A stretch of DNA of 44,453 nucleotides from Thermoplasmatota archaeon (GCA_965234725.1 CBDDUX010000022.1:1-44453), one strand, 5' to 3'; counted from the first letter of the stretch, positions 1,263-19,049 are shown. Notes: generated from the letters alone by a model not told the origin. Made by a program: numbers and translations.

Positions 1263-4200
1263 TCAATACTCTTCCCCTGATGGATCTATCCCACCAGACA
1301 AAGATGGAGGGCCAGAATCATATTGATATCCTTCACCCTCTGGTACCAATCCCAAATCGAATTGATCCTGATCCGAAATATCATTCTGTTCAAGATCGGT
1401 AGAAGATGGTCCCTTCTTTGCAAAAAGGAACAGCAACCATACTAGTACTATGATTAAAACTACAAATCCAGCAGATAATGCAAACAGCATGCCATAATTC
1501 ACGGAAATCTCATGATTGTCCTCACCAATATCAAATAATATTGGTTTTACATAGAAAGTTATGGTTTCAAATTCCGTTTCGATACCGGAGGAGGTCATTT
1601 CTTTAGCTACTATCTTCACTTGATAGTATCCTTCAACCAATTGACTGATATTCCAGGTGAAATTGGTTTCAGTCAATTGAGAAGCTCCCGGAATAATCTC
1701 CCATTCATTATCTCCTTTCATTCGATAATAGAGAGAGTAGGAAACTGGGTCACCATCTGGATCAGATGAAGTCCACCTGAAGGTTATCTCATTGGAATAT
1801 GTCAAATCGGCTGAGAGATTACTGTCGAGTTCTATCGTAGGTGGATCATTGATGTTGTTGACGATAATCTGTTGGGGAAAAAGTGCTTCGTTTGTCATAT
1901 TGTCATCACCCGGCTGACAGTCTGAAACAAGGATCTTCACATAATAGGACAAATCCTCCAGGCCGGTTACATTCATTTTGTATTCATTTTCATTTGGAAT
2001 TCCGGATTCAATCTCTACCCATGTTAAATTATCATGTGAAATAAAAATCCAAATCTTGAGGTTTTCACTCTCCCCAGGATCAGGATCACTTACCCTCCAC
2101 TCGAAATATGCTTTACCATTCCTGATAGGTTCATGAGGCCCTATCATATAGGGTAGCTTTATGACCGGAGCATCTGGATTATAAACATAGAAGTTGATAA
2201 AATCCGAATTTGAAATCCCATCATGAGGATCCCTTAAGATCATCTGTAATTCATACTTACCATCCCCCTCAATGAGTGAAAGAGTATTAAGGGAGTATGA
2301 ACCTAAATTTAGTCCTTCCCTAACGAGTTCCTTCCAGATAGAGGATTCTTCAAACCGATAATATAGTGTAAAGGTCATTTCTTCTGATTCATTTTCTTGG
2401 TCCTCTGATATCCAGGTCACCTCATAAATACCTCTTAAGGTTTGATTCTCTACGGGAGTGAGGAATTTAACCGAGGGATTATCATTATTGAAGATGGAGA
2501 AATTACCTGATAAAATTGAGGTCGTGACTCCATCAGTATCTGTGACATTGATCATCAATCGATATCCATCTGCATCTGGATATTTGGTTGTATTGAATTG
2601 AAAGTATCCTGTACTATTAACGTCATCTACCAATAGAATGTAGGATTTTTCTCCATTAGTTAGCCAAATATCAGTTTCTAGGCCATTTTTCAAATCTTGA
2701 GGATCATTTGAATCCCAAACGATTGCATACAGACCGGAAATAATTTCGTTTTCAATAGGTTTGAATATTTCAACACTTGGTTGATTTTGGATTTGAAATC
2801 TATCAGATATCGAATAATTCATCATTCCATCTGTGTACTTGACAATTAGCTTGACCCTGTATCTCTCACCATCTGGATAGTTGATTGAATTAAAGAGGTA
2901 GGTCCCAGTATTCTCGGTATTTTCGATCAGGATCGAATAATTCTCTCCGTCATCATCTGATATCCAGATATTAACAGATAGATCTTCGGTTTTATCTTCT
3001 CCATCTTGAGTTTCCCATTCAATATTATAAGATCTGCTGACAATCTGGTACTGTAAGGGGTTCAATATTGAAATTAAGGGAGGATCTGGATTATTGATCT
3101 CAAACCTGAAGAAGGTCCTGATTATTCTTGATTTATTATTGGAATCTTTTGCCTTGATCAGGATTGAATATCCATTTCCATCCGGAACCCTAGGAGAGGT
3201 AGTATTCCAGATATAGGTCCCGCTATTAGTGGTATATTCGATAATCGGTTCTTTCGGTTCCGATCCTCTTTGATAATAAATGCTCACTTCAAGATTCGAA
3301 ACATCCTCGAAAAAGTTGGTTTCCCACCTGATCTCAAGGTCACCTTTTAAGGTAAGATTGGTCATCTGGCTAAGGATGAAATCATTTTCAAAAGCCAAAT
3401 GGGGACCCCTACCACCACCAAAGATGAGATATGTCTGTCCTGATCCATTTCCACTCTCATCGTTCCCATTTGCTCCAATAAGAATGTCATAGAACCCATC
3501 TCCATTCAGGTCACCGGCACTTGATACTGAAGACCCGGAATGATCCTGAGAATATTCACCTATGAAGGATGCGTCGGCCGATGAAAGGTTCATATCCATC
3601 GACCATTCAGAGGCCTTCCCCAAGATCAAATATATCTGGCCCATCCCTTCACTACTCTCATCATTCTCATCTACCCCAATGAGTATGTCGTCGAAGCCAT
3701 CACCGTTCACATCACCGGCACTTGAAACGGAAGACCCGGAATAATCCAAGGAAGCTTCGCCGATGAACGACGCGTCAGCTGATGATAAGCTTGTATCCAT
3801 TGACCATCCTGAGGACTTTCCAAAGATGAGATATGTTTGCCCTGCCCTGTCACCGCCTTCATTATTCTCATTTGCTCCAATTAGTATGTCATGGACCCCA
3901 TCTCCATTTATGTCGCCGGCACCTGAGACTGAGGACCCGGAATGATCCTGAGAGTTTTCGCCGATGAACGACGCGTCAGCTGATGATAAGCTTGTATCCA
4001 TTGACCATCCTGAGGACTTTCCAAAGATGAGATATGTCTGTCCTGACCTGTCACCGCCTTCATCATTCTCATCTGCTCCAATGAGTATATCGTGGAACCC
4101 ATCTCCATTCAGGTCACCGGCAATTGATACTGAAGACCCGGAATAATCCAAAGGATTTTCGCCAATGAAGGATGCGTCAGCTGATGATAAGCTTGTATCC

Positions 4201-6341
4201 ATTGACCATCCTGAGGACTTTCCGAAGATGAGATATGTCTGTCCTGATCTGTCACCCCCCTCATCATTCTCATTAGCTCCAATGAGGAAGTCCTCGAATC
4301 CATCACCGTTTACATCACCGGCACCAGATATTGAAGATCCGGAAAAATCCAAAGAATTTTCACCAATGAAGGATGCGTCAACGGATGATAAGCTTGTATC
4401 CATTGACCATCCTGACGACTTCCCGAAGATGAGATATGTTTGCCCTGCCCTGTCACCACCCTCATCGTTATCATTAGCTCCTATGAGTATGTCATCGAAT
4501 CCATCTCCATTGACATCTCCTCCACCGGATATGCAATACCCAGAATGATCAGCAATTTCCTCACCGATGAATGACGCATCCGCTGAGGAAAGGCTAATAT
4601 CCATTGACCATCCTGAGGACTTTCCGAAGATGAGATATGTTTGCCCTGCCAAATTATTGCCCTCAGAGTTTCCATATGCCCCTATGAGGATGTCGTCGAA
4701 ACCGTCTCCGTTCACGTCACCGACACCTGTTACCGAAAACCCTGATTCATCACCTGCAGTCTCGCCAATAAAGGATGAGTCGGATTCAGAAAGATCGGTA
4801 TCCATTATCCAAAAAGTAGACCATCCGAATATCAGGTATGTTTGCCCTGCTCCATTTCCTCCCTCATCGTTCTGATAAGCACCAATGAGTAAGTCATCGA
4901 ATCCGTCGCCGTTAACATCAGCTCCGCTGGATATTGAATACCCAGACACATCAGAGGCAACCTCGCCGATGAATGATCCGTCGGCCGAAGATAGGCTGGT
5001 ATCCATAGCCCATCCTGAGGACTTTCCGAAGATGAGATATGTCTGACCCGCGGAATCCCCACCTTCATCGTTCTGATGGACCCCTATGATGATATCGTTG
5101 AAACCGTCAAAATTGATATCGCCGGTACCGCTTACGGAATTTCCGGATTGATCCAAAGTTGCCTCTCCGATGAAGGACCCATCCGCATTAGACAGGTCAA
5201 TATCCATTGACCATCCTGAGGACTTCCCCAAGATCAGATATGTCTGCCCCGCTCTATCACCTCCCTCATCATTCCCATATGCTCCTATGAGGAAGTCATC
5301 GAAACCATCTCCATTTACATCACCCGCACCGGATAAGGAGTATCCTGAATAATCTGCAATATTCTCACCGATGAAAGATGCGTCAGCATTAGACAGCTTG
5401 ATATCCATCGACCATCCGGAAGGCTTCCCAAAGATCAGATATGTCTGCCCCGCTCTATCACCTCCCTCATCATTCCCATATGCTCCTATGAGGAAGTCAT
5501 CGAAACCATCTCCGTTCACGTCACCCGTACCGGACACTGAGAAACCAGACATATCGGAGACATCCTCGCCAAGGAATGACGCATCAGCTGAAGAGAGGCT
5601 TATGTCCATTGACCATCCCGAGGATTTTCCGAAGATGAGATATGTTTGCCCTGTCGTACCACCTCCCTCATCGTTCTCATTCGCTCCTATAAGGAAGTCG
5701 TCGAAACCATCTCCATTTACATCACCAGCACCGGATATAGTTATAGCAGATTGATCTCCGGCAACCTCTCCGATGAAAGATGCATCAGCTGAAGAGAGGC
5801 TTGTGTCCATTGACCATCCCGAGGATTTTCCGAAGATGAGATATGTTTGCCCTGCATCTATCCCTCCCTCACTATTCCTATTCGATCCTATTAAAATATC
5901 ATCAAAACCGTCTCCGTTCACATCACCCGCACCGGTTATGGAACTTCCAGCCCAATCGAAAGCAGACTCACCGATGAAGGAAGCGTCTGCAGAAGAGAGA
6001 CTGGTATCCATCGACCATCCGGAAGATTTCCCCAAGAACAGAAAAGTCTGGCCTGCCTTATCGCCAGCTTCATCGTTATAAATCGCTCCTATTAGGACAT
6101 CGTCGAAGCCATCACCATTCACATCACCAGGATAGGTTACGGAATACCCCGATGCATCACCAACACCCTCTCCGATAAATGAAGCAGATGACACATTAGA
6201 AATATTCATGCCCATGGTACTTTCGCCAACTCCCCGAGTTGGACCTCCAATTGCTTCAAATGATGGAATTTCTTCAGGAAACAAAGAAAAACCTGTCGTT
6301 AGCAGGGCAAATACAATTATGGTTGAGTAACTCTTTTTCAT
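1263..6341 (-). CDS. Membrane-anchored surface protein: signal peptide, 14 FG-GAP (integrin-alpha-type) repeats, about 6 Ig/Fn3-like domains, TM helix, acidic tail
   Basis: 14 copies of (G/A)D(V/I/L)NxDG..D.(L/I)IG...GQ.YL..G. Beta-sandwich repeats (W..D...Y...W....L..G.Y). TM segment YGMLFALSAGFVVLIIVLVWLLFLFAKK. Confidence 0.92.
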   Translation of the reverse strand: MKKSYSTIIVFALLTTGFSLFPEEIPSFEAIGGPTRGVGESTMGMNISNVSSASFIGEGVGDASGYSVTYPGDVNGDGFDDVLIGAIYNDEAGDKAGQTFLFLGKSSGWSMDTSLSSADASFIGESAFDWAGSSITGAGDVNGDGFDDILIGSNRNSEGGIDAGQTYLIFGKSSGWSMDTSLSSADASFIGEVAGDQSAITISGAGDVNGDGFDDFLIGANENDEGGGTTGQTYLIFGKSSGWSMDISLSSADASFLGEDVSDMSGFSVSGTGDVNGDGFDDFLIGAYGNDEGGDRAGQTYLIFGKPSGWSMDIKLSNADASFIGENIADYSGYSLSGAGDVNGDGFDDFLIGAYGNDEGGDRAGQTYLILGKSSGWSMDIDLSNADGSFIGEATLDQSGNSVSGTGDINFDGFNDIIIGVHQNDEGGDSAGQTYLIFGKSSGWAMDTSLSSADGSFIGEVASDVSGYSISSGADVNGDGFDDLLIGAYQNDEGGNGAGQTYLIFGWSTFWIMDTDLSESDSSFIGETAGDESGFSVTGVGDVNGDGFDDILIGAYGNSEGNNLAGQTYLIFGKSSGWSMDISLSSADASFIGEEIADHSGYCISGGGDVNGDGFDDILIGANDNDEGGDRAGQTYLIFGKSSGWSMDTSLSSVDASFIGENSLDFSGSSISGAGDVNGDGFEDFLIGANENDEGGDRSGQTYLIFGKSSGWSMDTSLSSADASFIGENPLDYSGSSVSIAGDLNGDGFHDILIGADENDEGGDRSGQTYLIFGKSSGWSMDTSLSSADASFIGENSQDHSGSSVSGAGDINGDGVHDILIGANENNEGGDRAGQTYLIFGKSSGWSMDTSLSSADASFIGEASLDYSGSSVSSAGDVNGDGFDDILIGVDENDESSEGMGQIYLILGKASEWSMDMNLSSADASFIGEYSQDHSGSSVSSAGDLNGDGFYDILIGANGNDESGNGSGQTYLIFGGGRGPHLAFENDFILSQMTNLTLKGDLEIRWETNFFEDVSNLEVSIYYQRGSEPKEPIIEYTTNSGTYIWNTTSPRVPDGNGYSILIKAKDSNNKSRIIRTFFRFEINNPDPPLISILNPLQYQIVSRSYNIEWETQDGEDKTEDLSVNIWISDDDGENYSILIENTENTGTYLFNSINYPDGERYRVKLIVKYTDGMMNYSISDRFQIQNQPSVEIFKPIENEIISGLYAIVWDSNDPQDLKNGLETDIWLTNGEKSYILLVDDVNSTGYFQFNTTKYPDADGYRLMINVTDTDGVTTSILSGNFSIFNNDNPSVKFLTPVENQTLRGIYEVTWISEDQENESEEMTFTLYYRFEESSIWKELVREGLNLGSYSLNTLSLIEGDGKYELQMILRDPHDGISNSDFINFYVYNPDAPVIKLPYMIGPHEPIRNGKAYFEWRVSDPDPGESENLKIWIFISHDNLTWVEIESGIPNENEYKMNVTGLEDLSYYVKILVSDCQPGDDNMTNEALFPQQIIVNNINDPPTIELDSNLSADLTYSNEITFRWTSSDPDGDPVSYSLYYRMKGDNEWEIIPGASQLTETNFTWNISQLVEGYYQVKIVAKEMTSSGIETEFETITFYVKPILFDIGEDNHEISVNYGMLFALSAGFVVLIIVLVWLLFLFAKKGPSSTDLEQNDISDQDQFDLGLVPEGEGYQYDSGPPSLSGGIDPSGEEY
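3415..6190 (-). repeat. Intragenic tandem repeat, 14 x 201 bp (67 aa), encoding FG-GAP blades
   Basis: The period is 201 nt. For example, 5231-5312 is identical to 5432-5513, and shadow ORFs on the + strand recur at 3562, 3763, 3964 and 4165. Confidence 0.95.
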
Positions 6342-6730: not shown

Positions 6731-7285
6731 GTGAACGAAGTCTTGAAAGTGATCAAAAGAAGAAGGAGCATTAGAGATTTTAAGACAGAGCAGATCAAAC
6801 CAGAAGAACTGGATATGATCCTTGGAGCAGGTACTTTTGCTCCATCTGGTCATAATACACAACCCTGGTATTTCACTATTATTCAGGACCAAGATCTTAT
6901 CGATCGTATTAATGAGATATCAAGAGAGAATATGGCAAGGTCCGAGGTGGAATGGATCAAAAAACTCGGATCAAGATCAGATTATCGCGTCACATATAAT
7001 GCACCTACGGTTGTAATTGTATCAGGGAATATATCCGCAATAAGTTGGAAAGCGGATTGTTCTGCAGCTATTCAGAATATGCTGCTTGCCGCAGAAAGCT
7101 TGAACATAGGTTCTGTCTGGCTTGGATTGATAAGGTTCTGGTTTCAGGAACCTGAAGAAGTTGAAAGACTTGGTCTTCCTGAGGATTATGAAGCTTACTA
7201 TGGAGTATCTTTTGGATACAAGAAGCAGCAAGGAACTGTTGTGGGACCTGAAAGAAGAAAAGGTGTGATCCATTTCCTGAAATAG
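6731..7285 (+). CDS. Nitroreductase family protein (FMN-dependent)
   Basis: Motifs IKRRRSIRDF, APSGHNTQPW and AIQNMLLAAESLNIGSVW. SD GAGGTG precedes the GTG start. Confidence 0.93.
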   Translation: MNEVLKVIKRRRSIRDFKTEQIKPEELDMILGAGTFAPSGHNTQPWYFTIIQDQDLIDRINEISRENMARSEVEWIKKLGSRSDYRVTYNAPTVVIVSGNISAISWKADCSAAIQNMLLAAESLNIGSVWLGLIRFWFQEPEEVERLGLPEDYEAYYGVSFGYKKQQGTVVGPERRKGVIHFLK

Positions 7286-7552
7286 GAAAATGATATTGAT
7301 ATCATTAGAATCAATAGAAAATAGAAGATTCCATGTTCAAATAGAAGACATCCCATTACTATCTACTATGCTATATAAGAAGCCCTTTTCCAATAAACCC
7401 AATAATCTCTCCTGAAGACATGTAAATGAAATACTATCATCGTTGAAGTTATCCTCGGAGATATTACACTGCTTTATTATATTTCAAATGGCTACCCCCT
7501 TTTACAATTCATACATTTACTACCATGGGTAATTCTGGAAGTGTGATATTTC

Positions 7553-10500
7553 ATGGAATCTACAGAACCTAAAGATCCCAATACATGTGAACTCGAACCG
7601 ATTGAGTCGGAGACATTTCGAGATCTGAATGATACACTCCTATCCGAAGAAATGTACAACAAGAATTTGGCTGCAGTTTCAGCATGGATCGAGCAAGCAG
7701 GTGGGGATCCTCAAAAGGCCTTTGCCCGTGTTCTGATAGTTAATAATGGCCTTTCAGCATTGCGGATCATTCAGGGAATCTCATCTCTATCCAATCTGAT
7801 CTCCCAGGGTAAAGATCCTACTCTAATTCAGGCCGTGGCCATCGCCTCTGACGCAGATTGGGTTGGCGATTGCCTAGAAGAGGCACAGCAGCGCCCCAAC
7901 TATCTTAAAGAACCCGATATTATCATTGCCCGCATTGCAGGATTACGGCCAAAAGACACCTATCAAAACCAGGATGAGGTCATTGCAATCGCCCGGAAAT
8001 ACAAGTGTGACGCAATTGCCGTAGGATGGGGACATCTAGCTGAGAATATAACCTTTGCATCCCGCGTAGAGAAGGAGGGGTTCGTCTTCATTGGACCACA
8101 TGCAGAGGCAATGAGCCTGATGGGCGACAAGATCATGTCAAAACTGATCATGGAAGAAGCGGAGGTTCCCATGCTTCCTTGGAACGGTTCTGACATATCC
8201 CTATCTGATATCCGAGCGGATGCAAAGGATCTGGTCTCAGCTCGTGAAAAAAAGGAAGGTCCTCTTTCCGAAACAGATCGGTATCGTATGTTATTTGATC
8301 TTGCTTATGAACGGGTTGGGATCAATTCTATCGAAGAGGCCCGGTCGGTTGTTGACAACATTAACATTCCTGTGGTCATCAAAGCTACCGCTGGTGGCGG
8401 TGGTCGTGGTATTCGCTTCGTCACCGATGAAAAGGATCTTGGGTCCGGCCTGCAGGCTGCCATTTCAGAGGCATCGGCAGCGTTCGGAAACGGTACGGTA
8501 TTCATTGAAAAGGCCGCCGATCCCGGCTCTCGGCATGTCGAGGTCCAGATCCTGGCAGATACTGCAGGGACTGTAATAGCTCTTGGCGAGCGTGAATGCT
8601 CTATCCAGCGTCATAATCAGAAACTGATAGAGGAAAGCGGTGATGACATCCCCATAAGCAATGCAACCCGGCAGATCCTTAGAAAGGCTGCGGTAGCTGC
8701 GGCAAAAGCTGCGAAATATGTGAATGCCGGTACCGTAGAATTTCTTGTGGATAAAGATGGCAATCCATATTTCATGGAGATGAACACAAGGTTGCAGGTA
8801 GAACACATAGCTACAGAGGCAGTGTGTCCCGGACTCGACCTTGTGGTAGAGCAGCTGAAAATTGCCATGGGCATTCCCCTCGATCAAGAATTGATATCAT
8901 TAAGCGGGTCACTCACTACGGGTAAGCACAGCATTTCCGTTAGAATAACGGCTGAGAATCCCAATGCTGGTTTCAGTTCTCAAACCGGCACTATCGAATC
9001 GCTCGATATTCCTAATCTTGGTCCCAACACCCCTCGCGCATATTTCAGCTTCGGAGAGGGAGGAACCGTTCATTCCTTTGCGGACAGTCAGATAGGTCAT
9101 GTGGTTGTAAGTGCACCTACTCGTGAGGTAGCACGACAGTATATGGTGGCCTTTCTGAATAAATTACGTATCAAAGGCATCCTGACAACCCTCCAGTTTT
9201 CATCCACAATAATGCAAGATGCAGAATATATTGACGGAGGGGACATCCACGTTAATTGGCTCAAGCAGCGACTCGATCACGCACGATCGAAAGAGGGTGC
9301 GTCCCTTGGCAGTTCCAAGGTGCAACCCGAGCTAGGACTGGCAGCGGTGGCAATACTCGACTATCTTTTCCAGAAGGCAGAATCACAGAACAAATTCCAT
9401 GCGAACCTCATTTCATCGCGGTCTATCTCTCCCAAACTCCTGGCGAATACCGGCCTTACCCGTGTGAAATTCGGGAACCATCATTATACTGTTATTGTTC
9501 GTGAGATCGCAGATGAGCTTTATGAATTGATACTGGACAATGACTCGATGCTTGTACGGTTCTGGGAACGGTTGGGCCCATCTCGTTTCATGATGGAATA
9601 TAACGGGATCGTCTACCAGGTTCACCGGACAAATGAGACTTCCATAACCCATATAGAATTGGGCGGGCATACCATCACCTTCGAACGAGACCTTGACCCG
9701 GATGTTTTTCGTGCCCCTCTCGCTGGTATTATTTCATCTGTCGATGTCCAGCCTGGTCAAATAGTTGGGTTGGATGATACATTATTTACCATGGAAGCCA
9801 TGAAAATGATCTCATCACTCGATTCTCCACGAGCTGCAGCCATTGCAAATGTGTATGTTGATGCAGGTTCTATTGTTGAAGCGGGAACACCGTTACTGAA
9901 ATTCTCTGAAGCAAAAACTTCAGAGGTGGAAGAGGGACCGGTCCCATCCGGAGATGAAATAGAGGTAAAGGAATCCCGTTTACAATTCAAGCATGATGAA
10001 ACACACCTGGATTCCAAGCTCTATCGAAAGTGGTGCGAGAATGGTAGATTAAAGAGTCACTCGGCCGGTAGATCCGGCCCTGGCTGGAAGAAAGATTTGG
10101 AAAGTAGTCCTCACTCCCGTAGAAGGGAAACGCAGGACCAGACCCTTGAACAAAAGGAACAGGTTGCCATAAATGATAACGATATCAAGACCGTGATCGC
10201 CAATATCATGCGTGGATATCAGTTTTCAAACTACTTTTTAGACCTTCTGACAGAAGAGTTCACCGATATGAAAAAGCGACTCAGTGAAGAACAGTGGATC
10301 GCTCTCGTCAGCGAAACCATAGAAGCGTTCCACAAGGATGAGCGATTCTTCAAAGGGTCCATATCTCTAGTAGAGGGACTCGCCATTGCAGAAGAAGAGA
10401 CTGGAATAACTGATGCCGAAAAATATGATCTTGCCCGTTCTCACGCGAATTTGCACTCTAAGAAGACAGTGCTGTTAGCGCTACTTGAGCCCATTTCTTC

Positions 10501-13500
10501 AATGGATTTCAAATCTATAGTGTCCGACCTGGAAAAGCTAACAGACCTGGGATACTCTGATGAATACCGTGACCTATCCGCTCGAGCGGAAGAGCTCATA
10601 CATCTAATTCACCCTCTCCATGAGCGACCGATCGATCTTCAACAAGTTATGGAAGATATCGTTTCAGCACACGAATCGGGAGAACTCTCCGTTCAGGATG
10701 AATTAATGAAGAATGTAATGGCCACCACGGAATCCATGCTCTCTCAACTGATCGATTATCTTGTGACCGGATCGGGTTTTGCCCGAAAGATAGCAGGAAA
10801 GCTAATTGTCATGCGCGCCTACCGACGCCACAAGGGACTGACATGCGATTATGAACATATCGAGGGTGGGAAACGGCTCTACATATGGCGTTTAGTTGAT
10901 GCTGATACTGATATGGATCGTATGGGTCTTGTTAGCTTGGTAGAGCCCGGCGAGAATATCATGCAAAGCCTGACCCTTATGTATGAGCGTCTTCAGCGGC
11001 TCTGGGAGGAATATCCCGAAAGAACGGATCATACGGGAGATACCCTTGAACTGCTCATCCAATGGCCCCCTGATATCAAGAGCAGCGATGAGCTGTCACA
11101 GCACTTGAGTGTTATTGTAAATAAGGTTCTTGCAAATGAATGTCTGAAGCGTGTCACATTCGTTGTTCAAACCCTTCATGACCACATTCCCGGATTCTTT
11201 ACATTCCGGCCTGAGGAGGAGGGGAGCAGCTCGTATTGTGAGGATACCCTATGCAGGAACCTTCATCCTTCCTTGGCATACATGCTTGACCTGAAACAGC
11301 TTGAATACCTCAAAACAAACATTATCAAACTACCATCTGCAGATCCGTTGGTACATATTTTTCATCATCGTATACCGAATCCTCGCGGGTCGGAGCTACC
11401 GGATATTGAGAACCGTATCTTTGTAAGGACCATAATTAGAAACTCCGAGATAATCATGGGTCCTGAGGGCCCCTCCTTCCCGGCAGCGGAAGAGGCGTTT
11501 GCCAACTCCCTGCGACATCTGCGGGTCTCATATACTGCAACCGGAGCTCGGTCCCATAATAATCAGATTTATCTGGCATTTGCAAAACCTATAGAACTAT
11601 CTCTAGTGGAGTTCCAGAAGATCGTCAATGGAATGACCCGGAACATGAGTGAATATGCCGATGTTGACCTGACAAGAATGGAAATACGAGGCCGTGTCGA
11701 TTCCTGGCAGGCAACCGGTAGGAGGATCGATATGCTCCTCGTGGTTGACAATCCAACAGGATTGCTAACGGAGATGAAAGAATTTGTTATTGACACCTCT
11801 GGTTCCAAAGGTGCCAAGAAGACACGTATGCTCCTTCCCTACAGTGAGTTTATCAAGCAGCATCACAAGGGAGAACCCACAACTTCCGAAAATTCATGGA
11901 TACCTTTAAGCGACCTGATCAAACCAATGACAGCAGTGGACAAGAAACGAGTTATCTGTCGTCAAAAAGGGAAAGCTTACGTTTATGACAGGCTCTCACT
12001 TTTAAGAAATAAATTGGAAAACATCTGGTCCTCCTCTGGAAAAGCTATGCCCGATGAGATACTGACAGCTCAGGAGCTGATTACCGACCCCCAAGGGGCG
12101 ATTGTTCCGATCGACCGGCCAGCTGGTGAGAATGATCTGTCAATTGTGGCATGGCGTGTACGTATCAAGTCACCTGAGGCTGATTCTGGCCGGGAATTGA
12201 TTGTGGTTTCCGGAGATATGACACACCAAGGCGGTTCGGTTTCCATGGAGGAAGATATTCTCTTCTGGGAAGCAGCACGGATGGCCCGTGATGATGGTAT
12301 TCCATTCGTGTATTTCGCGGAAGGGAGCGGAGCTCGGATAGGCCTTGCGACGATCGTAACCCAGCGGTTGTCATATGATGACAAGAAAGATGTGTTCTTC
12401 GTAAACAAAAAAACGTACTCCCTTCTGAAACCAATAGTTATTGGCCACCGGGATCCAGCCAGGAGATCGCGTTTCATCATCACCTCCATTCTCGGCGGTC
12501 TACCCGGTATCAATGTGGCAGAAGAGGATGAATATCTCTATGTTTCTGAGGCCACCTATAACCGGTTCAAAGACAGAATGACCGCGCATCCAACTACTGT
12601 CAATACCGGCTCGAAAGATAAGGTCCGCTGGGTGATCGATTCAATTGAAAAACAGTATCCCCTGATCAATTTCGAGAACCTGTCCGGTTCGGCACTGATG
12701 GCACGGGCATGTTCATTGACCTATCACAGTGTTCCCACAATGGCCGTTGTAACCGATACATGTACCGGGATCATTGCATACAATGTTCGTCTGTTAAAAC
12801 GTATCATTCAAACCAAGAACTCGGAGATCATATTGACCGGCTACAGGGCCTTGAACTCTCTCTATGGCGGCGATGACGTATATTCCAGCAATCGTGAGCT
12901 TGGAGGGCCACAGATCATGGGTCCCAACGGGGTGTCTCACCATATAGTGGATGATGAAAGCCATGCCTGCAAAACCGTTCTATCATGGCTTGCGGGCGTT
13001 CCGATCAAGCGGGGATATCCATCTCCCGAAATGGAAACGGCAGACCCGATAGAGCGGGACATTTCAGGCGCCCTCCTTGGGCCGCATGGTCTGATCGAAC
13101 CACCCGGACCCGAAGCCGAACGTCCTGTCCCCTATGATTCGATGAAGCTTGTTCGTGCTATTTTTGATGAGGATTCTACTGAGGAGGCCATGGAAGAGTG
13201 GGGTGGCACAGTTCATGTAGGCCGAGCAACCATTGGTGGTTATCCCGTAGGTTTCATCACAGTCGAGACCAGAAAGGTGGAAAAGGAGGTGCCTGCCGAT
13301 CCTTCAATTGAGGGGTCAGCACCGGTTGAGATCAACCAGTTCGGACAGGTCTGGTATCCTGATTCTGCGTTTAAGACCTCCCAGTGGATACAGTTCATGA
13401 AATATGAGCAACGACCGGTAATTATCCTGCCCAACTGGCGTGGTTTTGCTGGTGGAAAGATCGACTTGTATAATGAGGTTGTTAAATTTGGTGCCATGAT

Positions 13501-13990
13501 CGTGGACGAACTGGTCCACTTTGACCTACCTGTTATCCTCTATATTCCTCCATATGCTGAGCTGCGGGGAGGGGCCTGGGTGGTTGTCGATCCACAGATC
13601 AATCCTGACCGTATCGTTCTCATTGCCGATGAGCATGCCACCGGATCGATCCTGGAACCCTCCGGAATGGAGTCTGTCCCCCTTATCCAGAGGCAGATCA
13701 AACGTGACATGATACAGCAGGACCCCATACTATCAAAATTGTACAGGAACCGGACAAAGTATGCAACACAGATGGAACGTATCAAACATATTGACCAGCA
13801 GATCGAGGAACGCGAGACAGAGATCTGGCCGGAATATCTTAAAAAATGGACCAAGATCTTTCGGCTGCACAATACTGCAGAGCGCATGGGCGCTCTTGGA
13901 ATTGCGAGTGAGGTAGTTCCAACGTCAAAAGCCCGTGAGGCCATCTTCAGGAATCTCAAGAATGGTCTGGAAAGGATAGTTAAAGAGTAA
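7553..13990 (+). CDS. Single-chain eukaryote-type acetyl-CoA carboxylase (ACC1/ACACA-like): BC ~7720-9280, BT, BCCP ~9700-9905, ACC central ~10190-11800, CT ~11950-13960
   Basis: BC motifs VLIVNNG, GWGHLAEN, GGGGRGIR, EMNTRLQVEH, HSFADSQIGH. Biotin site EAMKM (Lys751, within nt 9791-9808). Central motifs NIMRGY, SHANLHSK, RAYR, RVTF, RIFVRTIIR. CT motifs SGARIGLA, ENLSGS, LGGPQIMGPNGVSH, GQVWYPDSAFKT, NWRGF, ELRGGAWVVVDP. Confidence 0.95.
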   Translation: MESTEPKDPNTCELEPIESETFRDLNDTLLSEEMYNKNLAAVSAWIEQAGGDPQKAFARVLIVNNGLSALRIIQGISSLSNLISQGKDPTLIQAVAIASDADWVGDCLEEAQQRPNYLKEPDIIIARIAGLRPKDTYQNQDEVIAIARKYKCDAIAVGWGHLAENITFASRVEKEGFVFIGPHAEAMSLMGDKIMSKLIMEEAEVPMLPWNGSDISLSDIRADAKDLVSAREKKEGPLSETDRYRMLFDLAYERVGINSIEEARSVVDNINIPVVIKATAGGGGRGIRFVTDEKDLGSGLQAAISEASAAFGNGTVFIEKAADPGSRHVEVQILADTAGTVIALGERECSIQRHNQKLIEESGDDIPISNATRQILRKAAVAAAKAAKYVNAGTVEFLVDKDGNPYFMEMNTRLQVEHIATEAVCPGLDLVVEQLKIAMGIPLDQELISLSGSLTTGKHSISVRITAENPNAGFSSQTGTIESLDIPNLGPNTPRAYFSFGEGGTVHSFADSQIGHVVVSAPTREVARQYMVAFLNKLRIKGILTTLQFSSTIMQDAEYIDGGDIHVNWLKQRLDHARSKEGASLGSSKVQPELGLAAVAILDYLFQKAESQNKFHANLISSRSISPKLLANTGLTRVKFGNHHYTVIVREIADELYELILDNDSMLVRFWERLGPSRFMMEYNGIVYQVHRTNETSITHIELGGHTITFERDLDPDVFRAPLAGIISSVDVQPGQIVGLDDTLFTMEAMKMISSLDSPRAAAIANVYVDAGSIVEAGTPLLKFSEAKTSEVEEGPVPSGDEIEVKESRLQFKHDETHLDSKLYRKWCENGRLKSHSAGRSGPGWKKDLESSPHSRRRETQDQTLEQKEQVAINDNDIKTVIANIMRGYQFSNYFLDLLTEEFTDMKKRLSEEQWIALVSETIEAFHKDERFFKGSISLVEGLAIAEEETGITDAEKYDLARSHANLHSKKTVLLALLEPISSMDFKSIVSDLEKLTDLGYSDEYRDLSARAEELIHLIHPLHERPIDLQQVMEDIVSAHESGELSVQDELMKNVMATTESMLSQLIDYLVTGSGFARKIAGKLIVMRAYRRHKGLTCDYEHIEGGKRLYIWRLVDADTDMDRMGLVSLVEPGENIMQSLTLMYERLQRLWEEYPERTDHTGDTLELLIQWPPDIKSSDELSQHLSVIVNKVLANECLKRVTFVVQTLHDHIPGFFTFRPEEEGSSSYCEDTLCRNLHPSLAYMLDLKQLEYLKTNIIKLPSADPLVHIFHHRIPNPRGSELPDIENRIFVRTIIRNSEIIMGPEGPSFPAAEEAFANSLRHLRVSYTATGARSHNNQIYLAFAKPIELSLVEFQKIVNGMTRNMSEYADVDLTRMEIRGRVDSWQATGRRIDMLLVVDNPTGLLTEMKEFVIDTSGSKGAKKTRMLLPYSEFIKQHHKGEPTTSENSWIPLSDLIKPMTAVDKKRVICRQKGKAYVYDRLSLLRNKLENIWSSSGKAMPDEILTAQELITDPQGAIVPIDRPAGENDLSIVAWRVRIKSPEADSGRELIVVSGDMTHQGGSVSMEEDILFWEAARMARDDGIPFVYFAEGSGARIGLATIVTQRLSYDDKKDVFFVNKKTYSLLKPIVIGHRDPARRSRFIITSILGGLPGINVAEEDEYLYVSEATYNRFKDRMTAHPTTVNTGSKDKVRWVIDSIEKQYPLINFENLSGSALMARACSLTYHSVPTMAVVTDTCTGIIAYNVRLLKRIIQTKNSEIILTGYRALNSLYGGDDVYSSNRELGGPQIMGPNGVSHHIVDDESHACKTVLSWLAGVPIKRGYPSPEMETADPIERDISGALLGPHGLIEPPGPEAERPVPYDSMKLVRAIFDEDSTEEAMEEWGGTVHVGRATIGGYPVGFITVETRKVEKEVPADPSIEGSAPVEINQFGQVWYPDSAFKTSQWIQFMKYEQRPVIILPNWRGFAGGKIDLYNEVVKFGAMIVDELVHFDLPVILYIPPYAELRGGAWVVVDPQINPDRIVLIADEHATGSILEPSGMESVPLIQRQIKRDMIQQDPILSKLYRNRTKYATQMERIKHIDQQIEERETEIWPEYLKKWTKIFRLHNTAERMGALGIASEVVPTSKAREAIFRNLKNGLERIVKE

Positions 13991-14032
13991 TCAAACAACT
14001 TTCGATGTAAATATTATCAGATACCAGTATGG

Positions 14033-14075
14033 GGCCTTTCTACGCTATAATGAGGACCTCAATAGAGGCCTTTTT
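14033..14075 (+). terminator. Possible hairpin plus T-tract terminator downstream of the ACC gene
   Basis: Imperfect stem GGCCT(TT)CTA...TAGAGGCC with inner TGAGG-A-CCTCA, followed by TTTTT, about 40 nt after the ACC stop. Confidence 0.35.
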
Positions 14076-14273
14076 CATCTAATCCGGATCTCTCTTAGAT
14101 CGGCATCCAGAAGAGGTCCTTTCATTTTCGGTATCGAATTTGACATCTTGGAGGTTACTACCTCCAAGGTAAGGAAGATCTTTGATTTTCTGGATGTTTT
14201 CAGGTTTTTTTCAAAAACTGTCCCAGATTCACTTGATTTGGTATCAGGCGCTTTTTGATTCTCTTTTTTCACA

Positions 14274-17200
14274 TCATTGGATCGAGGATTTATCTGCAAT
14301 ATTATCAGATCTGATCTCTCCCTCCTGGACCGCATCCGGTCCAGGTTCGGTTGTAGCAGTCTCAACCTCAGGATCAATTTCATTTTGACCATTGAGTTCA
14401 ACCTTTTCAAGGTCGTTTACTGTCTCTCTGATAGTTTCCCGGAGTTCTCTGGTAGCCTCCTCCCTGTCCACCTCTTCATTATTTTTTGGTCTCCTTCGGG
14501 TCAGTATGATTATTTGGAGAATGATAATAATAATAAAGAGTATAGCAAGTCCAACCATTCCAAAATATATGGGATTGATCCCTCCCTCCTTTTCTTCGAC
14601 TACCTCTATCTTGAAAGTGGAAGTGAATACATCCAGACCATCGCTGACGGACACAGTCACAGAATGCACACCCACCTGATCATTTTCGGGTTCCCAAAGG
14701 ATCATACCATCATTTTCGGATATCTGGATACCCTCAGGTCCATTTAATATACTGAAAAATAGGTTTCCGATATCATCTCCATCACTATCGGTTCCAGCTA
14801 CTTTAAATCTGAAACTTGAACCAGCATTCACTTTTTGTTGAGGTATGTTATTGATCGAAGGAACGTTGTTGACCGTGAATGAGCCCATATTATCATTGCA
14901 TACACCAAATGTACATTGATCGAAGGGGATAACGGTCCAATAATAGGTCTTGCCCTTTTCCAGTTCTCCAAGTTCCAGAGAATTCCCTTCATATTCTGCT
15001 ATGTAGAGTGATTCTGTCCTCAATGTCTCAACGAATTGTTTATTCTCTGATAAATATACCCAAAAGGTCAATGTTTCTCCTTCGGGGTCATTTCCCTCCC
15101 ATTCAAGGACCGTCATCTTTGAGGAGGTTTTACCTTTCTCCTCCGGACCTGAGAACCATGCACTTGGTGATTCCGTCGGTAAGACTGTGATCTTGAAGAC
15201 ATGGTTTGTGAAGGCTGCGGCATTATCGGAGACCCTTATATTGACCTCCAGTTCATTTTTATCACCGTCGAAAATCGTGTAATCGGCCGTCCATTCGACA
15301 AGACCTGTCCTTTTATTGATCTCCAGGCCGGATTCTGGTTCGGTCCAGACTGAGAATTCCAGCTCATCTCCAATGTCCGGATCAGTTGCATTGACATCGA
15401 AAATGAAGGTACTGCCGTGAAGGATCTCAAGATCATCCGGTATATCACTCCAAATCGGTTTATCATTCACGTTCTCGATCGTAAGCACAAATTCATGGCT
15501 GTTCATCAATCCCCCCGGATCCTTTACGGTCACATTCACAGACCAAGCTCCAACATCCCAAATACCGGGAGTTCCTGACAGCGTTCCTGTATTATTGTTG
15601 ATCGTAAGGAATGAAGCATCCGTGAAAAGCTCCCAGTGAAATTTTTCATCCCCGTCAGGGTCCAGAGCCACATAGTTCATTTGATATTTTTGTCCCTGCT
15701 TTCCTGTTGTAATATCTGTACTTGTGATCCTCGGTGGCTGGTTGAAATTTATCACTGTAAGCATGAAAGTTATGGATCCGGTCCCACCGTTTCCGTCATT
15801 CACCATAACAGTTATGTTCACGGTTCCTGCGTCGTCGTAAAGAGGGGTACCTGATAGGATCCCGCTGTTTTCCTCGATGGAAAACCATGAGTTGTCAGGG
15901 ATAACTGACCAAGATATCTCACCCTGTGTGTCATCAGAAGAATTGTAATCGACATAGTATTCCATTCCTTCTTTAGCAAACAGGATGTTTTCGGTTGTAA
16001 TATCTGGGGGTGTATTCACAACATTGATCCGGAACTCATGCTTATCCTTATGACCCAATTCATCACTTATCTCGATCCTAACATCACAAGGAAAGATATG
16101 ATTGTTGTTCGGAATCCCGTGGAGTATCTTGTTTTCCTCATCCCAACTGAGCCAATCAGAGGTGAAATACACATCCCAACTTTCCACCTCATAGCCGAAA
16201 TTCCAGTAATCCACCCTGTATTCCTGGTCTTCTAAAACTGTCGTGACATCAACAAAGGGTCTGAGCTGAAGAGGTGTGTGAACCATTATTTTAACTTGGA
16301 TAGAAAGTGTTTCCAGGGAGGTTATGGTAACATTCTCGAAATAATCCATATCCGCGGGTACCTCGAAATTTCCAATGTACTCACCAGAGCTCAGACCTGT
16401 CTCCATTAAAACGATCGGATTATTGAAAACCGTCTTACCATCTGAACTAAGATTGACAAATGCTTTGTCAATTGAGGATGGATTTGAGTCTGATCCCCTG
16501 GCCTTGAATATTATCTTCTGACCGAGGTCCATCTTGTCCAGGGTTGATAGGTTGAACCTATCGGTATGGACAGTTATGGAGTTTATTGAATTTGGCCTAT
16601 AGGGATAATCAACAACCATGTCTACCTTTACATATGGATCCTTCCATGAGGAAAATTCAATCATGTCGAAATATTCCATGGATAAGGGAACCCTGAAGTA
16701 TCCTCGATGAATACCGGAATCGCTTTGTGTCTCAAGCAATGTGATCTGCTGTGGAGAGAGAGACCCTCCAGGAAATACAACATCTACTTTTGCCCCGCTC
16801 CTGATACTTGTATTCGCGTCGGTTCCGGAAAGCTCGATGTAAACCCTTTGTCCAATGTCGAATTTGTAACCTTCATCGAAATAATTAATGTCATTGAAGA
16901 GTTTGATGGATTCAACCTCAAGTGGCTCCAGCCATGGAGTAATATCCAATGCCATGAGGAAAGAATCCGTCGCACCACTGTTATACATCTGGTATGGATC
17001 AAGAACGGTTAGATCGGTTGAGGAAGTATACCCGGTAAACACGGCTCTTCCATATGGATCGATAGCGATCCTCCCCATTATGGAATCGTTTTCCGACCCT
17101 CCGAAATAAGTGGAATATTCCAAACCGGACAGATCGCTTTCCAGGATGGATATGAATCCATCTCTGTTTCCTGAATTCGATGTATTTATTGCATTTGAGG

Positions 17201-19049
17201 TTGTATTAAGATCGCTGGAAGATGTGTATCCTGCAATGATATAATTTCCCAAAGGATCGATGTTTATACAATTGACTAAATCAATGGAATCACCACCAAT
17301 GTAGGTTGAGGCCACCAATTGGGATAGATTGGAATTGAATTCTATTACATAACCTTCGGAATAACCATCAAATTCGTTTCTAATCGCACCATTTGTGATC
17401 GGGAAATCGTTGGAATATGTATCTCCGACAATGGCAATATTTCCCTCATCCCCTAAGATCATAGAATAAACCCTCTCAGTGCCAGCACCTCCGAAGAATG
17501 TTGAGTAAATAATGTCGGAAAGATCATTCTTTAATATGGTCACAAAACAGTCCGAGTAACCATTGCATGTTTCAGAGTATGCACCTGAAGTAGTCGGAAA
17601 ATCTGTGGAATAGGTTGATCCTGTAACAATTATATCATGATTCGGAGATTCAACGAGATGATAGACATTGTCCTGATAAGAGGAACCACCGATGAATGTG
17701 GATATCAAGAGGGTGTCGCCCGTACTCTTGAATTTGGAAATATATCCATCCATTGTCCCGGATATTGTGACCCCATATGCACCACTTGTAGTGGGAAAAT
17801 CGCTAGAATATGTGTAGCCGTAGACAAAAAAATCATTGTTGGAAGATCCAAGTATGCCTCGGGCAACCTCTAAGCTTCCACTTCCTCCAAGGTAGGATGA
17901 GAAGAGCAGGTCTTCACCGTCGAGATCCAATTTGAGAAAAAACGTGTCATAGTAACCCTCCAAGGAGTTATCATAACAACCATCAGTTGTTGGAAAATCT
18001 GATGAAGCGGTGGTTCCTGTCATTAATATTCCATCATTTACGACATCGATATAATTGTCATAGTATCCGTCATTTCCCGAACCTCCTATGTATGTGGAAA
18101 AGAGAAGTCCAGAACAATCCTGATCGAATTTTGAAATAAAATAATCTGTATAGCCGACATAGGATGTATTATAGGATCCTATCTGTGTGGGGAAATCAGA
18201 TGAGGAGGTGACACCTGCCATTACAACATTTCCCTCAGGATCAAGGTCAACAGAAAGTCCTTTATCATCTGCAGTTCCACCGAAATATGTGGATGTTATC
18301 AGAGGATCTATCATTATCGTTTCTTCGGGTCTGTAACCGTTCAGTTTGAAACCGTATGTGTTTTCAGAGAGAAGGACGAACCTTGAATCGATTTTCTTAG
18401 TTGGTTGATCTAAGTAGAACACGTCCAATCCCTCATCCATCAGGGTTATTTCTCCCATATTCACTGTCAATGAATTTCGATCTTCCGATGCAATTCTATC
18501 GGAACCTTCGACCTTGATACGGATATCCTCGATGGAGGACCCTGGTTCCAGTATCAGATCGTATTTCAGACCTTCTTCTCCGAAATGATATTGCATATCT
18601 ATTCCATTCCATAGATCCTTGAAAACAACGGTTTTAAAACTCTTCGCACCTGTGATCCATCGATCTGGATCGTTCCCAAGGAAATAGTTAGTTGAATGTG
18701 GTAAAGGATCAACACCACATGGTTCAATGGCATCACCTCCCGGAAAATGATATCTCAACACATGACCATCAACATTCATCCGATCCTCTCCGGTTCGGAT
18801 ATCATAATATACGGATCCCAGGCCGAAACCGACTTTGCCGAAATTGGTTTCTGCTACAAAAGATATGCATTCATCCCATTGTCCCAAGTTCTCAGTGAAA
18901 TACCCTGTGAAAAGTGGATCTTCTCCATAGTGATTGGAACAAGAAGTGGTGGGGGTCGATTTTTCGCTGTCGACCAAACCCACCATGCCCGGTAAGATAA
19001 GACAGAGTGATATTATTAACATTTTTAAATTTGCAGACATCATACTCAC
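14274..19049 (-). CDS. Membrane-anchored surface protein: DUF7948-like N-terminal domain, SBBP beta-propeller repeats, cadherin/He_PIG-type Ig domains, TM helix
   Basis: N-terminal motifs FTENLGQW and NYFLGNDPDRW. Repeated STY(F/I)GG...G.T.S.DFPTT.GAY. Ig repeats with WS...SGILSGTP. TM segment IYFGMVGLAILFIIIIILQIIILTRRR. The true start may be ATG 19043 or 19040. Confidence 0.9.
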   Translation of the reverse strand: MSMMSANLKMLIISLCLILPGMVGLVDSEKSTPTTSCSNHYGEDPLFTGYFTENLGQWDECISFVAETNFGKVGFGLGSVYYDIRTGEDRMNVDGHVLRYHFPGGDAIEPCGVDPLPHSTNYFLGNDPDRWITGAKSFKTVVFKDLWNGIDMQYHFGEEGLKYDLILEPGSSIEDIRIKVEGSDRIASEDRNSLTVNMGEITLMDEGLDVFYLDQPTKKIDSRFVLLSENTYGFKLNGYRPEETIMIDPLITSTYFGGTADDKGLSVDLDPEGNVVMAGVTSSSDFPTQIGSYNTSYVGYTDYFISKFDQDCSGLLFSTYIGGSGNDGYYDNYIDVVNDGILMTGTTASSDFPTTDGCYDNSLEGYYDTFFLKLDLDGEDLLFSSYLGGSGSLEVARGILGSSNNDFFVYGYTYSSDFPTTSGAYGVTISGTMDGYISKFKSTGDTLLISTFIGGSSYQDNVYHLVESPNHDIIVTGSTYSTDFPTTSGAYSETCNGYSDCFVTILKNDLSDIIYSTFFGGAGTERVYSMILGDEGNIAIVGDTYSNDFPITNGAIRNEFDGYSEGYVIEFNSNLSQLVASTYIGGDSIDLVNCINIDPLGNYIIAGYTSSSDLNTTSNAINTSNSGNRDGFISILESDLSGLEYSTYFGGSENDSIMGRIAIDPYGRAVFTGYTSSTDLTVLDPYQMYNSGATDSFLMALDITPWLEPLEVESIKLFNDINYFDEGYKFDIGQRVYIELSGTDANTSIRSGAKVDVVFPGGSLSPQQITLLETQSDSGIHRGYFRVPLSMEYFDMIEFSSWKDPYVKVDMVVDYPYRPNSINSITVHTDRFNLSTLDKMDLGQKIIFKARGSDSNPSSIDKAFVNLSSDGKTVFNNPIVLMETGLSSGEYIGNFEVPADMDYFENVTITSLETLSIQVKIMVHTPLQLRPFVDVTTVLEDQEYRVDYWNFGYEVESWDVYFTSDWLSWDEENKILHGIPNNNHIFPCDVRIEISDELGHKDKHEFRINVVNTPPDITTENILFAKEGMEYYVDYNSSDDTQGEISWSVIPDNSWFSIEENSGILSGTPLYDDAGTVNITVMVNDGNGGTGSITFMLTVINFNQPPRITSTDITTGKQGQKYQMNYVALDPDGDEKFHWELFTDASFLTINNNTGTLSGTPGIWDVGAWSVNVTVKDPGGLMNSHEFVLTIENVNDKPIWSDIPDDLEILHGSTFIFDVNATDPDIGDELEFSVWTEPESGLEINKRTGLVEWTADYTIFDGDKNELEVNIRVSDNAAAFTNHVFKITVLPTESPSAWFSGPEEKGKTSSKMTVLEWEGNDPEGETLTFWVYLSENKQFVETLRTESLYIAEYEGNSLELGELEKGKTYYWTVIPFDQCTFGVCNDNMGSFTVNNVPSINNIPQQKVNAGSSFRFKVAGTDSDGDDIGNLFFSILNGPEGIQISENDGMILWEPENDQVGVHSVTVSVSDGLDVFTSTFKIEVVEEKEGGINPIYFGMVGLAILFIIIIILQIIILTRRRPKNNEEVDREEATRELRETIRETVNDLEKVELNGQNEIDPEVETATTEPGPDAVQEGEIRSDNIADKSSIQ

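Follow-up and report, generated by a model that had tools for sequence, protein, structure and literature searches.

Have archaea, which normally build isoprenoid ether lipids, any close relative of the single-chain acetyl-CoA carboxylase (ACC) of eukaryotes? The question is raised by a gene in a stretch of 44,453 nucleotides from a Thermoplasmatota archaeon (GCA_965234725.1, CBDDUX010000022.1:1-44453; "the window" below means the whole of this stretch). A first-pass annotation, made from the sequence alone, took this gene for a complete eukaryote-type ACC in an apparently archaeal genome. The answer that we consider likely is that it encodes a functional homomeric ACC of the ACC1 type, which was acquired horizontally, is the nearest sampled prokaryotic relative of the eukaryotic ACCs and probably feeds a PfaA-type lipid megasynthase. 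Homomeric ACC was tabulated as absent from prokaryotes in Table 1 of Huerlimann et al. 2015 (PMC4489017), and the origin of the eukaryotic ACC polypeptide was called unresolved in the part of Lombard and Moreira 2011 (PMC3199775) available to us.

Domain architecture and conserved motifs

The ORF list, the stop-free translation and the Pfam scan agree on an intact open reading frame for a protein of 2145 residues with the domain order of ACC1, as the first-pass annotation had it (Table 1). The biotin carboxylase (BC), biotin carboxyl carrier protein (BCCP), central and carboxyltransferase (CT) regions follow one another in a single polypeptide. Pfam matches above the curated cut-offs are Biotin_carb_N (residues 57-187), CPSase_L_D2 (257-445), Biotin_carb_C (463-571), Biotin_lipoyl (720-783) and Carboxyl_trans (1707-2133, 290 bits), and ACC_central (PF08326) reaches 119.7 bits against a cut-off of 23.2, with its best stretch at residues 1120-1408. 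An NCBIfam scan of the same protein gave no model above its cut-off. Searched against the sequences of solved structures, the protein scores highest with human ACC1 (6g2i, 735 bits, E 1e-219), followed by yeast Acc1 (5csk, 665 bits); among separate bacterial BC subunits the highest score is about 257 bits, for a match confined to the BC domain. The central 701 residues, when searched alone, still recover human ACC1 at E 8e-11 and, at E 3e-4, chain 5cs4 of the yeast central domain. The proteins of the relatives are named by NCBI only as 'carboxyl transferase domain-containing protein' [Thermoplasmatota archaeon], and public annotation currently overlooks the archaeal ACC1-type enzyme.

Nine segments had previously been aligned by eye with yeast Acc1. 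We checked these and EAMKM, ten motifs altogether, against the fetched ACCs of carp, Dictyostelium, budding yeast, Porphyridium and Coccomyxa, and nine of the ten, EAMKM included, align with the same or a near-identical eukaryotic motif. The window YFSFGEGGTVHSFADSQIGH aligns with eukaryotic YFSVG..GGIHEFADSQFGH, GQVWYPDSAFKT is identical in Porphyridium, and ELRGGAWVVVDP is another window motif matched in eukaryotic ACCs. The part of the alignment that did not stand is NIMRGY (residues 884-889), which lies in a poorly aligned linker and for which a eukaryotic match was not confirmed. Bacterial single-chain ACCs differ at several of the motif sites, where they read NRG (instead of NNG), DTGVEEG..IPSEFDSMIAK, GTLFPLSSKKV and RYHGGAYVVFSR; as aligned, the states at these sites are common to archaeal and eukaryotic ACCs and unlike those of the bacterial single-chain ACCs.

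Other residues are the same in all three groups. EAMKM stands at residues 748-752, and E748, M750, K751 and M752 do not vary among the 15 archaeal, eukaryotic and bacterial sequences aligned. In the BC domain, GGGG(R/K)GIR (282-288), E396, E409, N411, R413, Q415, E417, H418 and R464 are likewise unchanged in all three, and presumably have the catalytic roles of ATP-grasp and BC active-site residues. If the enzyme works as its family does, the BC domain would use ATP and bicarbonate to carboxylate the biotin on Lys751 of the BCCP domain, and the carboxybiotin would swing to the CT domain, where the carboxyl group would be passed to acetyl-CoA, possibly to propionyl-CoA too, with malonyl-CoA as the product from acetyl-CoA. 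The central region of about 700 residues would be a scaffold with no catalytic function, and the enzyme is probably active as a dimer. The gene is genuine and conserved, and its product is probably active as a homomeric ACC of the eukaryotic type.

Phylogenetic position of the archaeal ACC

A word-indexed search returned first 20 archaeal-type proteins (43-89% identity), then eukaryotic ACCs (best 743 bits, about 30% identity) and then bacterial proteins (about 400 bits). An exhaustive phmmer search with residues 946-2145 against 1.84 billion representatives gave 2254 matches at E <= 1e-3 and 357 at E <= 1e-30, and the scores fall from 1125 bits in the other archaeal sub-clade to 491 bits in Cyanophora with none between. 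A FastTree analysis of 121 full-length sequences over 1872 columns places bacteria first, then the protein P0086, then the archaea beside all eukaryotes. Another, of 216 central and CT regions over 1038 columns, splits the eukaryote-type sequences from the bacteria, the archaea, P0086 and P0217 with a support of 0.998, and P0091 groups there with a eukaryote-type sequence.

Rooted trees of the BC and CT domains were obtained with IQ-TREE under LG+C20+F+G4 (PMSF) in careful mode, with other carboxylases as the outgroup. In the BC tree (68 rows by 466 columns, 28 outgroup rows) the outgroup is split off at 97/93, the eukaryotes, the archaea and the bacterial type are each recovered at 100/100, and the eukaryotes, archaea and P0217 are held together at 100/99. 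In the CT tree (60 rows by 541 columns, 20 PccB-like outgroup rows) the outgroup is separated at 100/99, and the window CT groups with the eukaryotic CTs; a grouping with the PccB-like CTs, which is not seen, would have told against the first-pass annotation. Within the CT ingroup the bacterial type branches off from all others (82/81); P0086 is the next to branch, and the remainder (81/93) divides into P0217 with the archaea (62/42) and the eukaryotes (87/99). In both trees the bacterial clade of proteins of about 1870 residues is recovered at 100/100 and holds no archaeal sequences. We read the archaeal clade as the nearest sampled prokaryotic relative of eukaryotic ACC, lying outside the crown eukaryotes; the domain layout, the motifs and the BC and CT trees all bear out the proposal that there is a prokaryotic, here archaeal, lineage of ACC1-type homomeric ACC.

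A recent transfer from a crown-group eukaryote, or contamination by one, would explain why the top non-archaeal matches are all eukaryotic ACCs at about 30% identity, and why length, central domain and motif states are eukaryote-like. We consider it very improbable. Eukaryotic ACCs are only about 27-38% identical to the window ACC, the intronless gene lies among prokaryote-style neighbours on its 44-kb contig, and orthologues whose identity tracks kinship are present in 15 species-level genomes of 7 genera. The eukaryotes also form a group of their own that leaves out the archaeal clade, with support of 100/100 in the BC tree, 87/99 in the CT tree and 0.998 in the 216-sequence FastTree, so that the window ACC is not nested among them.

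A different doubt concerns the backbone of the trees, since the position beside the eukaryotes could be a long-branch artefact and the archaeal genes could derive from the bacterial radiation, of either the SACE_4237 or the PRO3 type. What weighs here against the position that we favour is that long stems, of 0.45-3.4 changes per column, lead to the archaea, the eukaryotes and the bacteria alike and that the CT tree was flagged for meeting long branches, so that the backbone of the trees could be affected by such artefacts, and that the eukaryote sampling is without named Discoba and Metamonada. The key node of the CT tree reaches only 81/93, and the FastTree of central and CT regions joins the archaea with P0086 and P0217 and then with bacteria. 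Set against this, the two domains, analysed separately under a site-heterogeneous model, agree on the backbone, the discrete motif states are common to archaea and eukaryotes against bacteria, and the window ACC scores 743 bits to eukaryotes and about 400 to bacteria. An approximately unbiased (AU) test on the BC data rejects prokaryotic single-chain ACCs as one group (delta lnL 56.9, p 0.0158), with the caveat that this group was defined after the tree had been seen. On this evidence we regard an artefact as quite unlikely, and keep the placement of the archaeal clade beside the eukaryotic ACCs.

Two of the sequences that branch near this clade represent unexplored deep lineages of single-chain ACC. 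P0217, a singleton of 2053 residues on a 27-kb contig, groups with the archaeal and eukaryotic ACCs in the BC tree as well as in the CT tree; its best non-self match is the archaeal clade (677 bits), no named close relative was found, and no organism is assigned to it. P0086, of 2506 residues with an N-terminal extension of about 450, is labelled 'Deltaproteobacteria bacterium PRO3' and branches between the common bacterial type and the archaeal and eukaryotic group. P0163, P0173 and P0294, at the base of the eukaryotic clade, have no organism assigned either and might be prokaryotic; a metagenome scan with P0163 found no relative.

Distribution in Thermoplasmatota and probable mode of acquisition

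PF08326 is present in 15 of 41 related genomes, a count that includes the source genome of the window (G000), with intact frames of 2075-2191 residues, some of the relatives' frames ending at contig ends. Among 401 genomes sampled across the phylum it was found in the same 15 only. These 15 are species-level genomes of 7 genera, and they belong to two families of one class: besides G000, ten of the 23 genomes in family f1 and all four in family f7. Identity to the window ACC tracks kinship: it is 89% and 77% within the genus, 71-81% within the family and 43-51% in the other family. The other families of the class have an ordinary PccB-type CT of 508-571 residues, which family f1 is without; in family f7, three of the four genomes hold both CT types and G032 holds only the ACC. 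The host lineage is uncultured and its setting is marine sediment.

Because the gene occurs in two families of one class, it is most simply explained by horizontal acquisition in the ancestor of a subgroup of one Thermoplasmatota class, followed by retention and vertical descent, and not as an ancestral archaeal gene. It may have come from a donor of bacterial type shared with eukaryotes, or have passed from a stem eukaryote to an archaeon or from an archaeon to a stem eukaryote; the data do not decide among these. The earlier suggestion that the enzyme bears on the origin of eukaryotic ACC stands in so far as the clade is the nearest sampled prokaryotic relative, and is tempered by its presence in just 15 of 401 genomes of two families, for which horizontal acquisition is the simplest account.

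Metagenomes hold further members. Of the 65 distinct loci found in a scan with an archaeal-only alignment, L150-L155 are of the archaeal type, six in number; L150-L154 were examined, and four of these five hold the full ACC gene. In a contig scan with a mixed alignment, keyed on two BC-domain motifs, the best 80 of 599 relatives are mostly ordinary biotin carboxylases; the scan gave at least five bacterial single-chain ACC loci and is not a map of the prokaryotic distribution.

Two of the related genomes have irregular copies. G001 has two ACC loci (C92:8295-9842 and C132:16146-22538), of which one is complete and the other is truncated at the end of its contig; a paralogue or strain heterogeneity could explain the pair. 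The copy in G004 (C13:31797-35439) looks broken, with open frames of 1033 and 332 residues, through a frameshift or an assembly error.

A PfaA-type megasynthase and the probable use of malonyl-CoA

The first-pass annotation predicted that a malonyl-CoA sink would be present in this organism, and G000 does encode a PfaA-type megasynthase, on contig C54 (Table 1). Its layout is a ketosynthase-acyltransferase (KS-AT) pair, a second KS-like piece, six tandem acyl carrier proteins (ACPs), a ketoreductase (KR), a dehydratase (DH) and a fused C-terminal 4'-phosphopantetheinyl transferase (PPTase), and against the NCBIfam model TIGR02813 PfaA it scores 1210.5 bits, the cut-off being 1010.1. The search of the genome for ACP, FabD and KS domains that had been proposed leads to this one gene, which holds six of the six PP-binding matches of G000, the sole Acyl_transf_1 (FabD-like) match and both strong KS matches. 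The other KS matches of G000 are weak and lie in frames of 409-425 residues; neither a PfaC-like KS gene nor a type III polyketide synthase (PKS) domain was found in that genome. A stand-alone FabK/PfaD-like NMO gene is present on contig C103.

G000 has one Carboxyl_trans match, which is the window ACC itself. Its second BC/BCCP locus, on contig C40, codes for HMGL-like, PYC_OADA and biotinyl domains and, after these, for a BC protein, and by this domain content it is a two-subunit pyruvate carboxylase of the PycB/PycA type. The window ACC is therefore the only acyl-CoA carboxylase found in G000. There are three BPL_LplA_LipB candidates in the genome, members of the biotin/lipoate ligase superfamily whose types are not told apart.

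The megasynthase is present in 28 of the 41 relatives, including 15 of the 15 ACC-bearing genomes. In two genera (G006 and G012) it lies directly upstream of the ACC and on its strand, only 87 and 118 nt separating the two genes, which is good evidence for a supply-and-consumer pair. It is most likely to the megasynthase on C54 that the ACC would supply malonyl-CoA, for the making of a fatty-acyl or polyene lipid.

There are also observations that count against such a coupling, or against an active gene. The ACC adjoins the megasynthase in only two of the 14 contexts examined (the window, nine relatives' loci and four metagenome loci, some of them near-duplicates), none of the archaeal-type metagenome loci examined (L150-L154) has a megasynthase beside the ACC, and in G000 itself the two are on different contigs. 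No RNA runs that hold the gene are listed. In genera g5-g7 of family f1, Carboxyl_trans is found in none of 11 genomes and the megasynthase in ten of them (G008-G010, G013, G014, G017, G018 and G021-G023, two of these genomes being 95-97% complete), from which it follows that the ACC is not obligatory for the megasynthase and that the coupling is not strict.

These ten genomes, which keep a megasynthase without any CT, would fit an ACC that mainly serves another pathway or substrate, such as propionyl-CoA to methylmalonyl-CoA, carbon fixation or anaplerosis, with the link to the megasynthase being incidental. So would the fact that family f1 is without the PccB-type CT of other families, which the ACC may then have replaced. 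This explanation is unlikely when it is set against the confinement of the ACP and malonyl-transferase-type domains of G000 to the megasynthase, the failure to find a type III PKS domain there, the operon-like adjacency in two genera and the co-occurrence in 15 of 15 genomes. We therefore retain supply of the megasynthase as the probable role of the ACC.

The slot after the megasynthase gene varies. It is occupied by the ACC in G006 and G012 and by an IOR-like oxidoreductase pair in G000 and G008, and in G003 and G023 nothing is inserted, a conserved thymidine-phosphorylase-like gene of 503 residues coming next. The IOR-like 2-oxoacid:ferredoxin oxidoreductase is encoded by two paralogous pairs, one in the window (26154-28768, plus strand) and one beside the megasynthase (G000:C54:26586-29161), each with an alpha subunit that carries thiamine pyrophosphate (TPP) and 4Fe-4S domains and a POR-gamma-like beta subunit; the pair on C54 may supply an acyl-CoA starter or extender. 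Beyond Thermoplasmatota, the megasynthase has close homologues, 57-58% identical over KS-AT, under the labels Candidatus Heimdallarchaeota and Asgard group archaeon, and after them come Streptomyces type I PKSs at about 29%. A search of the literature found no paper that describes an archaeal PfaA-type synthase.

Contig integrity and genomic setting

The window is the whole of contig C22 of G000, an assembly of 3.54 Mb in 114 contigs that is 97.65% complete and 2.54% contaminated. Both junctions of the gene with its flanks (7285-7553 and 13990-14274), which had been singled out for checking, are bridged by Logan contigs from run X1. One of 3866 nt spans 6931-10796 at a word depth of 1795 and the other, of 3553 nt, spans 10864-14416 at 1728; both have 0 differences to the window, and with this even depth the contig is not chimeric at the junctions. 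Run X1 is possibly the source sample, so that its reads would not be independent, and runs X2-X4 cover the stretch piecewise only, the uncovered parts carrying no evidence. Contigs of a related strain (90-99% alike) from a different marine-sediment study extend 92 nt 5' of the ATG and, at the other end, 212 nt 3' of the stop codon. In run X3, a related-strain contig that comes from another study diverges from the window upstream of 7382, and the gene upstream of the ACC therefore differs in that strain.

A chimeric assembly or a mis-binned contig might be suspected from the GC content of the gene (0.47-0.50), somewhat above that of its immediate flanks (0.40-0.46), and from a gene order around the ACC that is not conserved even inside a genus. 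We find this extremely improbable in view of the bridging contigs of X1 and the related-strain contigs of the second study, the other long genes of the window, which share the GC of the ACC gene, and the relatives, whose ACC sits on contigs of up to 116.7 kb. The relatives are annotated by NCBI as Thermoplasmatota archaeon, and the contig does not classify as non-archaeal. Chimera and contamination were rejected on the bridged junctions, the orthologues with identities that track kinship and the prokaryote-style flanks.

Those flanks encode a nitroreductase, giant FG-GAP/He_PIG surface proteins, an ABC transporter, an HVO_0163-type helix-turn-helix (HTH) protein and a surface protein with a J-domain tail. 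Two giant predicted surface proteins on the minus strand flank the ACC region, one of 1692 residues with 14 FG-GAP repeats (1263-6341) and one of 1591 residues with DUF7948, He_PIG and Big_9 domains (14274-19049). Farther along, at 39952-42249 on the plus strand, is a gene for 765 residues whose sole Pfam match is a C-terminal DnaJ domain (residues 675-741), and contig C54 encodes a HEAT/Arm-repeat protein of 494 residues with a terminal DnaJ domain.

Table 1 Coordinates of the ACC gene, its parts and the megasynthase (window positions unless a contig is named)
Feature	Position	Strand	Basis and remarks
Whole ACC gene	7553..13990	+	ORF list and translation: 2145 codons plus stop, ATG start, uninterrupted
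BC domain, residues 57-571	7721..9265	+	Pfam Biotin_carb_N, ATP-grasp CPSase_L_D2, Biotin_carb_C; contains FMEMNTRLQVEH motif
BCCP (biotinyl) domain, residues 720-783	9710..9901	+	Pfam Biotin_lipoyl
Codon of predicted biotin-attachment Lys751	9803-9805	+	Within EAMKM
Central non-catalytic region, residues ~785-1480	9905..11992	+	ACC_central matches at 10298-10888 and 10910-11776
CT region, residues ~1481-2145	11993..13987	+	Pfam Carboxyl_trans match at 12671-13951
AT-rich 267-nt spacer 5' of gene	7286..7552	+	TATA-like TTTATTATAT at ~7474-7483; putative promoter, presumed
PfaA-type megasynthase, 3740 aa	G000:C54:15325-26547 (locus L123:325-11547)		Domain scans; on another contig than the ACC

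Evolutionary and physiological significance

The main interest of the window ACC is both evolutionary and physiological, the closest prokaryotic relative found for the eukaryotic enzyme being paired with an archaeal PfaA-type lipid megasynthase. In score, in length, in motif states and in both domain trees, the archaeal clade is much closer to eukaryotic ACC than the actinobacterial type is, and it thereby provides the near outgroup that has been missing for the rooting and dating of eukaryotic ACC. It also allows one to ask which features of the central domain predate eukaryotes. Some archaea keep what appears to be a complete malonyl-CoA supply alongside a megasynthase that resembles polyunsaturated fatty acid (PUFA) synthases, which makes the question of fatty-acyl lipids in these organisms directly testable.

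A more far-reaching interpretation, which we put forward only tentatively and think doubtful, is that the Thermoplasmatota clade is the true sister of all eukaryotic ACCs and that the eukaryotic enzyme came from an archaeal or archaea-associated pool and not directly from the actinobacterial type. This pool of ACCs would have worked with PfaA-type megasynthases, a kind of synthase that metagenome-assembled genomes (MAGs) labelled Heimdallarchaeota or Asgard also have. If it were true, these archaea would have a surviving malonyl-CoA-based fatty-acyl synthesis close to the machinery that eukaryotes inherited, and this would bear directly on the lipid divide.

Comparison with known systems

Eukaryotic ACC is regulated through a phosphorylation loop and by citrate-driven filaments. 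The eukaryotic homomeric enzymes (human 6g2d, 6g2i and 8xkz; yeast 5csk and 5csl) are, like the window ACC, single chains, of about 2100-2400 residues, in the order BC-BT-BCCP-central-CT, and have in common with it the motif states NNG, YFS.G..G..H.FADSQ.GH, GQVWYPDSAFKT and ELRGGAWVV. The window gene differs in being intronless and in an archaeal host, in its identity of about 27-38% to them and in belonging to a separate clade outside the sampled eukaryotes.

Archaeal multi-subunit acyl-CoA carboxylases carry out the same chemistry with separate BC, BCCP and PccB-type CT subunits and have no central domain. The PccB-type CT is only distantly related to that of the window (20-47 bits), and the Carboxyl_trans scan detected no multi-subunit PccB-type carboxylase in G000 or elsewhere in family f1. 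Bacterial enzymes of the long-chain acyl-CoA carboxylase (LCC) type, such as SACE_3154, resemble the window ACC in having BC, BCCP and CT in a single chain. According to the part of PMC6491548 available to us, they have the CT at the N-terminus, are without the central region, form hexamers and arose by an independent fusion, so that the window ACC differs from them in its opposite domain order and in the presence of the central region. The partner megasynthase shares with PfaA (TIGR02813) the KS-AT, the six tandem ACPs, the KR and the DH, and is unlike it in the fused C-terminal PPTase and in the second KS-like piece before the ACPs.

The prokaryotic system most like the window ACC is the SACE_4237 family, whose members are single-chain ACCs with a homologous central region. 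According to the available text of Livieri et al. 2019 (PMC6491548), SACE_4237 of Saccharopolyspora erythraea was the first homodimeric multidomain ACC with the central region to be characterised in a prokaryote; it is essential, is active on acetyl-CoA and propionyl-CoA and supplies malonyl-CoA for fatty acid synthesis, and the eukaryote-type fusion is proposed there to have arisen in actinobacteria. With this enzyme described and bacterial homologues common, the premise of the first-pass annotation that homomeric ACC with this type of CT is eukaryotic is outdated. The SACE_4237-type homologues that we fetched come from Propionibacteriales, Nonomuraea, Terracoccus, an Actinomycetota MAG and a Xanthomonadales MAG, with stop-to-stop frames of 1873-1913 residues, and bacterial single-chain ACCs labelled Terriglobales have about 1865. 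Three bacterial proteins, from two of the loci and from Terriglobales, were scanned for ACC_central; in each it is above its cut-off, and the match spans about 455-654 of the profile, against 157-700 in the window ACC.

A literature search found no report of an archaeal single-chain ACC, although the supplements of PMC6491548 and PMC3199775, which it did not cover, may list more homologues. The bacterial type has about 1830-1910 residues and scores about 400 bits to the window ACC, which has 2145, and reads NRG, DTGVEEG..IPSEFDSMIAK and RYHGGAYVVFSR where archaea and eukaryotes agree. Judged by tree position, motif states and length, the window ACC is not a member of the SACE_4237-type bacterial clade. 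The homomeric ACC family, bacterial members included, was already known, and what is new is an archaeal enzyme of the ACC1 type.

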